Source of the DNA: Abditibacteriaceae bacterium
Lineage (GTDB): Bacteria > Armatimonadota > Abditibacteriia > Abditibacteriales > Abditibacteriaceae
Direction: 5' to 3'
Length of the DNA: 16,468 nt
NCBI GenBank assembly: GCA_031425655.1
Contig: JANPJS010000276.1
Location: forward strand, 1-16,468
The notes under the pieces were generated by a model, which was given only the letters and a program-made list of their open reading frames with translations, was not told the origin of the DNA and did not search any database. Both the position numbers and the translations under genes were made by a program. Positions 925-13,732 of this stretch are shown piece after piece. Numbering within the stretch: the first letter of the stretch is position 1; every line of letters begins with the position of its first letter.

Positions 925-997
925 TTCACCGCAGAGACGCAAAGAACGCAAAGAATTTAAGAATCTCTGCGTTCTTTGCGTCTCTGCGGTGAATTAT
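921..997. repeat. Long palindrome (CACCGCAGAGACGCA family) between convergent genes; probable bidirectional terminator or REP-like element
   Basis: Perfect 30-bp inverted repeat: 921-950 ataattcaccgcagagacgcaaagaacgca and 968-997, with a 17-nt spacer. It fills the whole gap and contains the epimerase TAA stop. Confidence 0.9.
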
Positions 998-2712
998 CAG
1001 AGTGATCGAACTCGCGCCACGACTTCGTCTATCGGCACGGTTTCGTTGAGCGATTTGTCGCGTGAGCGAATCTCGACTCCGCCGCCGCTTTGCGTGGTTT
1101 TTCCGGCCACGATTTGAATCGGAATACCGAATAAATCGGCGTCGGCGAATTTGGCGCCGGGACGCTCGTTTCGGTCATCGAAAAGCACATCCACGCCTGC
1201 CGCTTTCAAGTCTGCGTAAAGCTTTTCGGCAATGGCGCGCGTAACGTCGTCTTTTTCCAAGAGCAGCAAATGCGCGTCGTAAGGCGCTACGCTGGCGGGC
1301 CAGATGACGCCGTTATCGTCACGGTGCGCTTCGGCAATCGCGGCCACAATGCGCGACACGCCGATGCCGTAACAGCCCATTTCCAAGATGCGTCGCTTGC
1401 CGTTTTCATCGAGAAAGCCAGCGTCCATCGCCTTCGAGTATTTGTTGCCCAATTTGAAAACGTGGCCCAGTTCGATGCAGCGCGCTTCTTCGAGCGGCCC
1501 GCCGCCGTTTGGCGAGTCTTCGCCGGCTTTGGCTTCGCGCATATCGGCCCATTGCGTGACGACAATATCGCGTTCAACATCCACGCCGCGCAGATGAAAT
1601 CCGTCTTTATTGGCGCCCGTTGTCATGCGTTTGCGCCCGCGCAGGCTTTGGTCAGCGATTACGGTTTGTTTCGTCAAATTGACCGCGCCCAAGCTGCCGG
1701 GAAGTGCACCAAGCAGCGCGAAAATCTCTTCGGCGGTTGCCGCACGCAAAGCGCCGACGCCTAATGCGTTCGCTAATTTTGCTTCATTCAGTTGATGGTC
1801 GCCGCGCAGCAAGGCCAATATCGCCCCCCCTTTGCTCCCCCCCGCCGGGGGGGAAACAGGGGGGGCGATATAAACCAGCGTTTTGATTTGATGCTCGGCT
1901 GCCGCGCCGCCGGGAAAATTAGCGAGCGCGTCAATGGTGACGATGCCGGGCGTGGCAAATTCTTCGAGTTCGTCGCCGATGTCAGCGCGGTCGGCGATGG
2001 TCGACAAAATCGAAGTCGCCATTTCGAGGTTGGCGGCGTAGCCATCGCTTTCGTTAAAAAGCATGGTATCTTCGCCTGAATCGGCAATCGCCATGAACTC
2101 CTGCGTGTCGAAGCCGCCGATGCCGCCGCCCGATGCCTGCACGATCTGAAATTTCAAGCCGCAACGCGTGAAAATCGCTTTGTAGGCTTCGACCATTTTG
2201 TCGAACGAGGCGTCCAGCCCGGCTAAATCGCGGTCGAACGAATACGCGTCTTTCATTACGAATTCGCGGCCTCGAAGCAGTCCGGCGCGCGGACGCGGCT
2301 CATCGCGGAACTTGCCTTGAATCTGATAAAGCGTGATGGGCAATTGCTTGTAACTCGAAATCGAGCCGCGCACGATGTCGGTCACGACTTCTTCGTGCGT
2401 CGGGCCGAGCAAATATTTCGCGCCTTTACCGTCTTCGAGCTTGAAGAGAATATCGAGCTTATCGCGCCCGGTTTCGGCCCATAATTCTTCGGGATGCATA
2501 GCCGGCATCAGCAATTCGATGGCTCCGGCGCGATCCATTTCCTCGCGCACGATTTGCTCGACGCGGCGCAAAACGCGCCATCCGAGCGGTAAATACGAGT
2601 AAATTCCAGCACTGAGTTGGCGAATGAAGGCGCCGCGCAAGAGCAAGGCGTGGCCGGGATTATCGGACTTGACTTGTCGCAACGTCGGCGCAAAAAATTG
2701 AGATTGTCGCAT
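997..2712 (-). CDS. proS: Proline--tRNA ligase (bacterial type with INS editing domain)
   Basis: Motifs GPTHEE, KFRDEPRPRAGLLRGREFVMKDAYSF, IELGHVFKLG, MGCYGIGVSR, and anticodon domain DDRNERPGAKFADADL. Start MRQSQFFAPTLR at 2712 is preferred over 2730 because of GAGGA upstream and the typical ProRS N-terminus. Confidence 0.97.
   Translation of the reverse strand: MRQSQFFAPTLRQVKSDNPGHALLLRGAFIRQLSAGIYSYLPLGWRVLRRVEQIVREEMDRAGAIELLMPAMHPEELWAETGRDKLDILFKLEDGKGAKYLLGPTHEEVVTDIVRGSISSYKQLPITLYQIQGKFRDEPRPRAGLLRGREFVMKDAYSFDRDLAGLDASFDKMVEAYKAIFTRCGLKFQIVQASGGGIGGFDTQEFMAIADSGEDTMLFNESDGYAANLEMATSILSTIADRADIGDELEEFATPGIVTIDALANFPGGAAAEHQIKTLVYIAPPVSPPAGGSKGGAILALLRGDHQLNEAKLANALGVGALRAATAEEIFALLGALPGSLGAVNLTKQTVIADQSLRGRKRMTTGANKDGFHLRGVDVERDIVVTQWADMREAKAGEDSPNGGGPLEEARCIELGHVFKLGNKYSKAMDAGFLDENGKRRILEMGCYGIGVSRIVAAIAEAHRDDNGVIWPASVAPYDAHLLLLEKDDVTRAIAEKLYADLKAAGVDVLFDDRNERPGAKFADADLFGIPIQIVAGKTTQSGGGVEIRSRDKSLNETVPIDEVVARVRSL
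1818..1871. repeat. C7/G7 palindromic element located in frame within proS
   Basis: Outer perfect 14-bp IR atatcgccccccct (1818-1831) / agggggggcgatat (1858-1871). Inner 8-bp IR tccccccc / ggggggga around loop gcc. Translates as IAPPVSPPAGGSKGGAI. Confidence 0.8.
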
Positions 2713-4206: not shown

Positions 4207-4209
4207 ATA

Positions 4210-4284
4210 AGTTTTGAGTTTTAAGTTTTGAATTATGAGTTAACAACTCAAAACTCAAAACTCAAAACTCAAAACTCAAAACTC
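4210..4284. repeat. Inverted heptamer tandem array (AGTTTTG)n ... (AAAACTC)n
   Basis: About 4.5 degenerate agttttg units (4210-4241) face 5 perfect aaaactc units plus a partial unit (4245-4284). Fills the galT-kinase gap. Confidence 0.9.
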
Positions 4285-7664: not shown

Positions 7665-7750
7665 CAAGGCAAACGCACGAGAACTGCCCGGCGAATAAAT
7701 TCGCCGGGCACTCAGGCAAGCCTCCGAAAAATCCTCATGCGTTTGCCCTG
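7665..7750. mobile_element. Short (86 bp) CAGGGC-ended MITE with target-site duplication
   Basis: Imperfect TIRs caaggcaaacgcacgag / ctcatgcgtttgccctg. Flanking direct repeat gattaacag(c) at 7656-7664/5 and 7751-7759/60. Central palindrome tgcccggcgaataaattcgccgggca. Last 44 bp identical to 13689-13732. Confidence 0.85.
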
Positions 7751-8254: not shown

Positions 8255-8351
8255 GAGTTTTGAGTTTTGAATTTTAAGTTTTGAATTGCCCTACCCAGTC
8301 CGGCAATTTTCAACTTAGAACTCAAAACTCAAAACTCAAAACTCAAAACTT
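8255..8351. repeat. Second inverted heptamer tandem array (GAGTTTT)n ... (AAAACTC)n
   Basis: gagtttt/gaatttt/aagtttt units from 8255, inner IR aattgcc / ggcaatt, then aaaactc units to about 8351. Same unit as 4210-4284. Confidence 0.9.
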
Positions 8352-8364
8352 AGAAAGGCCCGTA

Positions 8365-9759
8365 ATGAACAGCAATTCCGTCGAAAACGATCCCGGCGCC
8401 ATTTACGCCAGCCCCGCCGACATGGCCGCGCCCAGCCCGGTTGATGCCTACGCCCGCCCCGACCAGATTCGCTTCGCACCTTCGATTGCGCGCGGCATCG
8501 CGGCGCGTGGGCAAGGCTCAGCGTTGCAGCAAACGATGGTCATGCTTTTGGCCGGTGGCCAGGGCGAGCGCTTGTATCCGCTTACGCGCGACCGCGCCAA
8601 ACCGGCGGTGCCGATTGGCGGCGTTTATCGCATCATTGATTTCGGTTTGTCCAACTGCATCAACAGCGGAATGCGGCGCATTCTCGTGCTCACGCAATAC
8701 AAATCGTTTTCGCTGCAACGGCACATTCAAGATGCGTGGAATCCGCTTTTCAACCCGGTTTTCGGCGAATACATTGACGTAATTCCACCGCAGCAGCGCA
8801 ACGTCAAACGCTGGTATCAAGGCACGGCGGACGCGATTTTTCAGAACATTTATATGCTCCAACAGGAGCGCCCGGCATTCGTGGTGATTCTCAGTGGCGA
8901 CCATATTTACAAAATGGACTACGCCAAAATGCTGGACTTTCATCTGGCAAAAGGCGCCGATTTAACCGTCAGTTGCACGCGCGTGCCCCTCGCCGAAGCC
9001 TCGCGTTTCGGCATCGCCGGCGCCGACGACAGCGGGCGCATCGTGCGCTTCGTGGAAAAGCCCAAAGACCCGCCGCCCATTCCCCACGACCCCAGTTATT
9101 CTTACGGTTCGATGGGCGTTTACGTTTTCAATACGGACGTTTTGGTGCGGCGCCTGATTGACGACATGAAGCAGGATACCGAACACGATTTCGGCAAAAA
9201 CATCATTCCCGACATGGTGGCAGGCGGCGACAAAGTGTTCGCCTACCCATTCGTGGATGAAAACAAAGGCCCGGACGTTTACTGGCGCGACATCGGCACG
9301 ATTGCCTCGTATTACGACGCCAACATGGATTTGACGCAGGTCAAGCCGCAATTCAACCTTTACGACGACGAGTGGCCGATTCACCGCCGCAACCAGCCCG
9401 GCCCACCCGCCAAAACCATTTCCTACACCGCAGAACACAGCCACACCGGCTCGGCGCGGCGCGCTGAAATCGAAGATTCGCTGCTGGCGACAGGCGTTAT
9501 TATCAGCGGCGCGCAGGTGCGAGGCAGTGTTCTCAGCCCGCGCTGCTTTTTGCACTCGCGGGCGCAAGTCGAAAACAGCATTCTCTTCGACGACGTGGAA
9601 ATCGGGCGCGACTGCCGCATCCGCAACGCGATCATTGACAAGCACGTCAAACTGCCGCCGGGAACTATCATCGGCGAAGACCCAGAAGAAGACGCGCGCC
9701 GCTTCACGGTCAGCGCGGAAGGCATTGTGGTTCTGCCGAGCGGCCTTGTATTGAAATAA
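8365..9759 (+). CDS. glgC: Glucose-1-phosphate adenylyltransferase (ADP-glucose pyrophosphorylase)
   Basis: LAGGQGERLYPLTRDRAKPAVP, WYQGTADA, LSGDHIYKMDY, FVEKP, SMGVYVF, DFGKNIIP, YWRDIGT, and a C-terminal beta-helix. ATG 8365 follows gaaagg; the TTG start at 8281 only translates the repeat. Confidence 0.96.
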   Translation: MNSNSVENDPGAIYASPADMAAPSPVDAYARPDQIRFAPSIARGIAARGQGSALQQTMVMLLAGGQGERLYPLTRDRAKPAVPIGGVYRIIDFGLSNCINSGMRRILVLTQYKSFSLQRHIQDAWNPLFNPVFGEYIDVIPPQQRNVKRWYQGTADAIFQNIYMLQQERPAFVVILSGDHIYKMDYAKMLDFHLAKGADLTVSCTRVPLAEASRFGIAGADDSGRIVRFVEKPKDPPPIPHDPSYSYGSMGVYVFNTDVLVRRLIDDMKQDTEHDFGKNIIPDMVAGGDKVFAYPFVDENKGPDVYWRDIGTIASYYDANMDLTQVKPQFNLYDDEWPIHRRNQPGPPAKTISYTAEHSHTGSARRAEIEDSLLATGVIISGAQVRGSVLSPRCFLHSRAQVENSILFDDVEIGRDCRIRNAIIDKHVKLPPGTIIGEDPEEDARRFTVSAEGIVVLPSGLVLK

Positions 9760-9762
9760 TTT

Positions 9763-9840
9763 TTCACCGCCTTGCCCAGAGGGCACCCAAACGCCGAGGG
9801 CGCAGAGATTTAATTATCTCTGCGCCCTCTGCGTTTTTGG
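9763..9840. repeat. Second CACCGC..CGCAGAG-family palindrome, interrupted by a micro-hairpin
   Basis: 21-bp IR with 1 mismatch (9789-9809 / 9816-9836, loop ttaatt) resembling 921-997. The leading ttcaccgc is separated from the stem by cttgcccagagggcacc. Confidence 0.75.
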
Positions 9841-9847
9841 AGTCAAT

Positions 9848-10081
9848 CATCTTACGCAGTAGGATTTGTTTGATAGGCGCAACGAGCGGCTTCGCCGCTC
9901 CCGGAAACCCCCACCCCCCTTGGTAAGGGGGCTAAAGAGATCATGCTACTGCACAAAGTTGCGTTTGGCTCGTGCCGCAGCGTATCAATTTAGCCCCCTT
10001 ATCAAGGGGGTTGGGGGTTTCCGGGAGCGGCGAAGCCGCTCTACACACCGCTTACTATTAGTCCATCGCGTAAGGTGGGAT
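9848..10081. mobile_element. MITE-like element with 53-bp internal inverted repeats
   Basis: IRs 9884-9936 and 9989-10041 (2 mismatches in 53 bp), each made of hairpin gagcggcttcgccgctc and hairpin ccccctt-N3-aaggggg. Outer cttacgc / gcgtaag IR. Flanking direct repeat agtcaat at 9841-9847 and 10082-10088. Confidence 0.75.
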
Positions 10082-13514: not shown

Positions 13515-13732
13515 CAGGGCAATCGCATGAGGATTTTTCGGTGTTTCCCAGAATGGCCCGGCGAATAAATTCGCGGCAACAACTCGGCAAAGTCCACCTT
13601 CGTGGACTCTTTTCTGAGTTTTTAGTCGCCGCAGGGCGACTTCGGGTGCCCTTTGGGCAGGGCGTGGTTGCCGCGAATTTATTCGCCCGGCACTCAGGCA
13701 AGCCTCCGAAAAATCCTCATGCGTTTGCCCTG
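13515..13732. mobile_element. Long (218 bp) CAGGGC-ended MITE with nested palindromes
   Basis: 27-bp TIR with 1 mismatch (cagggcaa[t/a]cgcatgaggatttttcgg), extending imperfectly to about 69 bp including a perfect 21-bp ggcgaataaattcgcggcaac. Inner hairpins at 13591-13608 and 13624-13641. Flanks ccacttccac (13505-13514) and ccactttcac (13733-13742). Confidence 0.88.

Follow-up and report, generated by a model that had tools for sequence, protein, structure and literature searches.

The proS gene of the source genome (G000), from an Abditibacteriaceae bacterium, carries a palindromic repeat inside the region that encodes the editing domain of prolyl-tRNA synthetase (ProRS). It is a real in-frame palindromic insertion, and its broad kind is already known; intragenic REPs in tRNA synthetases are described in the account PMC3733652. 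It is very probable that a dispersed palindromic repeat was inserted here. We also consider it fairly likely that the whole proposal holds, namely that a dispersed hairpin was put into proS, probably by a DUF559 protein, and is tolerated at the tip of a predicted β-hairpin. This case contributes a ProRS loop that was rewritten several times among members of one genus, and two repeat subfamilies, each of which is paired with its own DUF559 gene.

The palindrome in proS and its place in ProRS

The window is the whole 16,468-nt stretch of DNA that was analyzed. In it, proS (proline-tRNA ligase) lies on the minus strand at 997..2712 and encodes 571 aa from an ATG at 2712. The gene is intact and is the sole full-length match in the genome. 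The open reading frame could extend to a start at 2730 (577 aa, 997-2730); the ATG at 2712 is likelier. The frame 997-2730 matched the ProRS model NF006625 with 696 bits (cut-off 558), and Pfam tRNA_edit was found at residues 260-383. The protein has the features of a bacterial ProRS with an INS editing domain: the catalytic core, an INS domain with the conserved Lys and the RGD motif, and the anticodon domain. The named ProRS homologues are from Abditibacteriaceae. The conserved editing-domain Lys (1882..1884, minus strand) is K277 of 571, as counted from the alignment with the E. faecalis ProRS 2j3l, in which it stands opposite K279. The RGD motif lies at 1798..1806 (minus strand), after the hairpin, and both Lys277 and RGD were invariant across 21 aligned sequences. 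We take K279 of E. faecalis 2j3l to be equivalent to K279 of E. coli. The K279A variant serves as an editing-defective E. coli ProRS in the study PMC3973320.

The whole palindrome (1818..1871, 54 bp, unstranded) is read on the minus strand within proS. It consists of 6-bp outer arms and a 42-bp four-run core, C7-N6-C7-N3-G7-N5-G7 (1824..1865, unstranded), with an 8-bp inner stem and a 3-nt loop. The 7-nt runs start at 1824, 1837, 1847 and 1859; in the whole genome, homopolymer runs of C or G that are exactly 7 nt long number only 29. In length and layout, the core equals other four-run copies in the source genome and in Chloroflexota. The 54-bp element matched its own reverse complement at 44 of 54 positions without gaps, and a perfect 14-bp terminal inverted repeat stands at each end, which is a trait of MITEs. 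The DNA hairpin was calculated at -25.7 kcal/mol (z -5.69), and none of 200 shuffles was equally stable. In Rfam, nothing in the window reached the gathering score. A preliminary description, made from the letters of the sequence, had reported a 54-bp nested palindrome with four 7-nt runs at 1818-1871 in frame, and the coordinates and the folding agree with it; the peptide that it wrote down is also that of the minus-strand translation. Its run pattern, C7-N5-C7-N3-G7-N4-G7, was off by one in two spacers, which are really N6 and N5, so that the pattern finds nothing in the genome, the element included.

The Ile codons on both sides belong to the 54 bp, as do two bases of a Tyr codon. The upstream arm in the sense of the gene (1866..1871, minus strand) overlaps Tyr-Ile-Ala codons that are also present in empty-site orthologues. 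The downstream arm (1818..1823, minus strand) is its exact inverse and gives Ala-Ile codons, where most relatives have Pro-Val. The downstream arm uses the rare codon ATA, which makes up 6% of Ile codons in long frames and 2 of 36 in proS. The arm is either a copy of the host flank or the end of an element that happened to match the target. ATAT is present at both sides of the palindrome, as had been noted, but it belongs to the inverted arms, as their outermost bases. Its reading as a target-site duplication was rejected, because removing 50 bp breaks the frame and the implied empty site would be out of frame; the orthologues show codon replacement. The sequence itself is reproducible: a 906-nt Logan contig from run X1, with a depth of 11.2, covers 1351-2256 with 0 mismatches and 0 gaps, in answer to the concern about an assembly artefact. 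Since run X1 is probably the source sample, the identical contig speaks for reproducibility and is no independent occurrence.

In the alignment with 2j3l, in which 19 residues separate the Lys from the RGD, the ten extra residues land in the turn after I-A. An AlphaFold model built from the 21-sequence alignment had a mean pLDDT of 77.8 and fitted 2j3l with a TM score of 0.79. Because its strands 275-283 and 296-303 enclose a low-confidence loop (pLDDT <50 at 287-293), the insert is predicted to sit at the tip of a β-hairpin, seven residues along the strand from the Lys. Both the loop position and the disorder are model predictions, and they fit the surface loop that had been expected from the sequence. 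The claim that the insert is next to the editing Lys stands for the sequence (7 residues), but in the model the insert lies at the far end of the strand. The element is likely tolerated because of this predicted position at the hairpin tip, and the insert is most likely neutral for ProRS. After the insert, the stretch GSLGAV has Ala as the family consensus, where the E. faecalis, S. aureus-type and P. aeruginosa structures have Pro. We take this stretch of the editing domain to be the GxxxP loop. The Ala is common to the relatives and is thus unrelated to the insert.

The repeat family in the genome and beyond

Two simulations with an order-4 Markov model gave 2 and 3 cores of the form C5+N3-9G5+, whereas the source genome contains 151. 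These were assigned to family A (C5-TT-NNN-AA-G5, 78 cores), family B (58) and others (15). Inverted doublets are frequent, with a partner within 140 bp for 74 of the 151 cores, and the proS copy is a single self-complete unit. Contig ends hold 54 of the 151. In the window, an intergenic inverted doublet of the family A hairpin occupies 9884..10041 (158 bp, unstranded), with 58-nt arms that are 93% complementary. The hairpin at 9908-9931, which had been proposed as kin of the proS element, is the left half of this doublet and has the same design.

Inside frames of at least 230 codons, 18 cores are well embedded. Besides proS, 16 such frames are involved; 15 were scanned and 11 had Pfam matches, and some repeats may precede the true start. 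Four-run copies of 37-42 bp were found in long frames at five places besides proS. Comparison with orthologues for the genes of IleRS, MtaB, OppC and a DUF6785 protein showed the repeat in a variable loop, with the frame kept, in 4 of 4. Host codons were replaced in these genes with no target duplication, and the repeat peptides vary with frame and orientation.

Other genomic copies had been anticipated, and the 151 related cores bear this out, but a second exact copy of the C7-N3-G7 core was absent from the source genome, and 300 other genomes of the phylum held none. In GTDB, at least 127 stretches matched the C7 variant, and the 80 examined were mostly from Anaerolineae, together with Prochloron and one planctomycete. 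Among the matches listed, 35 of 82 C7 copies were exactly 42 bp long. The best Chloroflexota copies are identical to the proS core at 36-37 of 42 positions, and the four-run copies of the source genome at 30-31 of 42. Judging by these identities, with the nearer match in Chloroflexota, the proS copy is one of two things: a family A copy that has drifted, or a variant that immigrated.

The arms of the copies tend to be complementary within a copy. In short copies, the mean stem was 5.5, compared with 2.7 in cross-pairs; among long copies in the genus, 3 of 9 had stems of at least 4, compared with 4.9% of cross-pairs. The arms of the MtaB copy look element-borne. That the host always supplies the template for the inverted arms was rejected as a general rule, since the flank stems of Chloroflexota C7 copies had a mean of 0.84 against 0.92 in cross-pairs. 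The family A singles of G003 (L334-L338) have A/T-rich terminal stems that are copy-specific and paired within each copy. Some loops have collected several kinds of repeat. In the IleRS loop (L164, G000:C64; L169-L174), the source genome and G003 have a family B hairpin cluster, G001 has an insert bounded by heptamers, G002 and G011 are extended by a short stretch each, and G013 has nothing. In the MtaB loop (L157, G000:C102; L175-L179), the source genome and G001 have a family A hairpin, and G002, G003 and G011 have heptamer repeats of differing sequences. A 1606-codon frame with laminin-G-like domains (L156, G000:C100:673-5490) holds two separate in-frame four-run palindromes.

Several known systems resemble this family in part. 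RPEs are palindromic repeats that lie in frame in housekeeping genes and are apparently compatible with the protein fold, according to the accounts PMC10969869 and PMC3184786. The in-frame palindromes in ProRS, IleRS, MtaB, OppC and the DUF6785 protein are similar to them. The preliminary description had drawn on RPEs, but the element is not an RPE by size, peptide or tag. RPEs are described in these accounts as about 105-150 bp long with a conserved peptide, whereas the element has 42-54 bp, C/G homopolymer runs and several frames and orientations. The CGTC end tag that RPEs and CGTC REPs carry according to PMC3733652 is absent from the flanks here. REPs and REPINs are short hairpins that form inverted doublets, and the associated gene is flanked by the cognate repeat, as PMC3116915 describes; for the intragenic GTAG and CGTC REPs, PMC3733652 describes tRNA synthetase copies in other species. 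The family shares with them the short hairpins, the inverted doublets and a gene beside the cognate repeat. However, GTAG REPs and REPINs have a RAYT and a GTAG foot tag, and here there is DUF559, no tag, and no repeat flank at any of the six Y1_Tnp matches (0/6). A RAYT as the mobiliser was rejected on this last count. Compared with MITEs, terminal inverted repeats are present and the target-site duplication is absent.

Elhai and colleagues reportedly described in 2008 cyanobacterial SDRs, very short repeats inserted in frame in conserved genes. That paper may already cover the cyanobacterial members of the C/G hairpin family. The layout of C-run, short loop and G-run also resembles BoxC and the TM motifs. 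BoxC/PIT/TM elements have a C-rich run, a short loop and two G-rich runs, are abundant in cyanobacteria and occur as palindromic pairs (PMC4666352). The part of that account on TM motifs reports no mobiliser and gives TMECO as always intergenic in E. coli. Membership in TMECO was rejected, because the consensus regex of PMC4666352, as given there, fails on both strands of the element; it has 8 matches elsewhere in the source genome. For non-GTAG in-frame palindromes, no enzyme is named in the portions of the literature consulted on them.

Empty, extended and rewritten loops in relatives

The spacing from Lys to RGD amounts to 29 residues in this protein, whereas 106 of 120 homologues have 19, in line with the roughly 10 aa that the preliminary description had thought were added to the loop. 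Among the remaining homologues, the spacing was 22-24 in 7 and 28-30 in 6 (the query included), and 1 was unparsed. Outside the loops, two proteins come closest, P0013 (87.7%) and P0003 (87.2%), and both have 19 residues. They supply, at the peptide level, the empty site that the preliminary description had proposed to define by alignment with close relatives. Compared with P0003, five residues (DEKPA) have given way to fifteen. No insert of the size of a full-length DUF559 cassette was present at the ProRS turn among the 120 homologues listed (1 unparsed).

Other members of the genus have other sequences at the same turn. G001 has a different C/G palindrome there (TPPAPLGKGG...GAGG), with a contig break within it. 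G002 and G003 have a 28-residue loop encoded by non-palindromic DNA. P0007, P0002 and P0006 add three more loop sequences, seen at the peptide level only, of which that of P0002 is of a similar Pro/Gly type. The editing domain has a second loop that is hit, after GSLGAV, where G001 and G002 have a family A hairpin. P0007 has palindrome-type peptides at both loops, and its post-GSLGAV peptide is the same as that of G001 and G002 (peptide level only).

In the RpoB tree, the source genome falls outside the clade of G001, G002 and G003 (support 99/98), and the ProRS tree calculated without the loops gives it the same placement (96/96). Its pairing with P0003, which has the empty site, is weak (83/88). 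The AU test did not reject a single origin of all seven long-loop rows, the source genome and six congeners (p 0.49), which leaves it uncertain how many independent events there were. The loops of the source genome and P0002 as sister sequences were rejected (AU p 0.007). Either way, whether or not the origin was single, the ProRS loop has been hit or rewritten several times in the genus.

In 80 metagenome ProRS loci, the spacing was 19 residues in 39, the loops were ordinary with 23-27 residues in 37, and one had 37; 1 was mis-parsed and 2 were without the motif. The ProRS frames of these 80 loci contained no C5+N3-9G5+ core. Long non-palindromic loops at the ProRS turn occur naturally. Orthologue loops of the same length in non-palindromic DNA, which had been named as a point against a mobile palindrome, were found in part: the loops of G002 and G003 have 28 residues, and those of 37 of the 80 loci have 23-27.

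DUF559 genes and the spread of the hairpins

The source genome has three DUF559 matches. The short gene on C244 has family A doublets on both sides, and the short gene on C144 has a family B doublet before it. A 282-aa DUF559 fusion on C92 has no hairpin flanks. As background, a core within 200 bp has a frequency of 0.5% for one side, and for both sides together the count is 0 of 20000. The C/G design of these flanks, an 8-bp stem with a 3-nt loop, is the same as that of the proS element. The C244 protein matched the endonuclease-like structure 3hrl (E 2.9e-18) and otherwise only PvuRts1I, weakly. Across the family, C-rich hairpins were found within 400 bp of 11 of 30 DUF559 loci (30 of 67 matches listed), compared with 1 of 54 control stretches, most of them coding DNA and not gene flanks; the GroEL set (without G003) was used only as a control. 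By the same rule, 19 of the 30 family DUF559 loci, some of them incomplete, lacked a C-rich hairpin. In five C7-bearing genomes, 7 of 11 DUF559 matches had C/G-run flanks by eye (7 of 7 of the higher-scoring or short ones). These seven include L322 (CCCTCTCCC type) and one short fragment. The three long DUF559 fusions examined in C7-bearing genomes had no such flanks. The DUF559 flanks in Prochloron have the layout of four-run family A copies. None of the DUF559 genes in the source genome was flanked by the exact C7 variant, and related C5-C7 hairpins flank DUF559 in the C7-bearing genomes. A DUF559-like frame was present within 800 bp of none of the 80 C7 loci. No published description of a link between DUF559 and palindromes was found, with most subscription journals outside the coverage of the search.

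We believe that a small Vsr-like DUF559 protein, the candidate nuclease, probably acted in trans; its genes bear the same kind of hairpin. DUF559 would nick or cut the DNA. Repair would then copy the hairpin in and overwrite a few host bases, leaving no target duplication, and selection would keep solely the in-frame, stop-free events in permissive loops. In proS, the hairpin likely replaced a short β-turn of about five codons by fifteen. Such cut-and-repair together with selection for permissive loops would explain why the same loop was repeatedly hit or rewritten in the genus. I-Bth0305I, a Vsr-like homing endonuclease, cuts beside its insertion site and serves a mobile element (PMC3239194). 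As described there, that enzyme is intron-encoded and site-specific, whereas the gene here is short, stands alone and lies between hairpins. The copies here are gene-less, dispersed and unspliced, unlike the I-Bth0305I intron; the precedent is one of broad nuclease class.

A spread without any dedicated enzyme is an unlikely reading, in which a hairpin or triplex stalls replication, template switching or microhomology repair copies the repeat, and DUF559 genes merely accumulate repeats. It would agree with the overwritten host codons and the absent target duplication, with arms that are complementary within copies yet different between copies, and with the unrelated heptamer tandem repeats that gather in the same loops; related C/G triplex motifs are tied in PMC4666352 to genome instability, and no association with mobile elements was found there. 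However, each short DUF559 gene of the source genome has its own repeat subfamily, one of them on both sides, far above background, and the long divergent DUF559 fusions (G000:C92 and three loci elsewhere) have no such flanks. Movement of a REP or MITE by a RAYT or another transposase is quite improbable. Against it, the Y1_Tnp matches have no core within 300 bp (0/6), the ends of the element carry neither a GTAG nor a CGTC tag, and there is no target duplication, although REPIN-like inverted doublets are common (74/151 cores partnered within 140 bp), six Y1_Tnp matches exist in the genome, and intragenic REPs in tRNA synthetases are described in PMC3733652.

Selection on the peptide might also explain the recurrence, if the loop were adaptive and altered editing or tRNA contact. 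Seven lineages of the genus clade do have 28-30-residue loops or a longer unassembled insert. Yet the loop peptides have little sequence in common, the model is of low confidence there, two close relatives have no extension, and what is preserved is the DNA symmetry and not the peptide, with one of the two ATA codons of proS in an arm. We regard this explanation as very improbable. Hardly any probability attaches to an artefact of assembly or to a loop that is rich in Pro/Gly by chance. The homopolymer runs and the frequent position of family repeats at contig ends (54/151) would invite such a suspicion, and the identical Logan contig, the intact frame, the folding (z -5.7) and the near-matching 42-bp copies in other phyla speak against it. 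We retain insertion of a dispersed hairpin with DUF559 as the candidate nuclease.

Should DUF559 prove to be the mobiliser, there would be a role for a large nuclease family whose function is unknown, and one origin of new protein loops could be put to the test. The genome is a compact test case, with two subfamilies beside their own DUF559 genes, copies in two tRNA synthetases, and relatives with variant loops. The ProRS insert also marks a site in the editing domain that is tolerant of engineering. As a bolder and tentative possibility, DUF559 may be behind a class of hairpin elements, as yet undescribed, that are written over permissive loops of essential enzymes with neither target duplication nor splicing; the ProRS loop would then be a landing pad on which rival families replace each other, and ordinary-looking extensions such as the G002/G003 loop would be their domesticated remains.

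In L321 (G045:C46), a 1261-codon frame opens with a hairpin-flanked DUF559 domain that is fused to it in frame. The later part of this frame holds a peptide typical of a C7 element and presumably has helicase-like motifs. Several other repeats were observed in the window. A near-perfect inverted doublet (34-nt arms, 97%) lies at 921-997 between a convergent epimerase-like gene and proS, and a related stretch is found at 9808-9851. Upstream of proS, 2865-2927 is an inverted doublet of a GTAG-tagged REP-like hairpin, with 24-nt arms that are 100% complementary. Heptamer tandem arrays form inverted blocks at 4208-4284 and 8255-8344; the latter overlaps the TTG-started 5' end of the open reading frame 8281-9759, the true start of which is probably later. 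An inverted-repeat element of 218 bp occupies 13515-13732, and part of it (60 nt) recurs at 7691-7750 with 95% identity.
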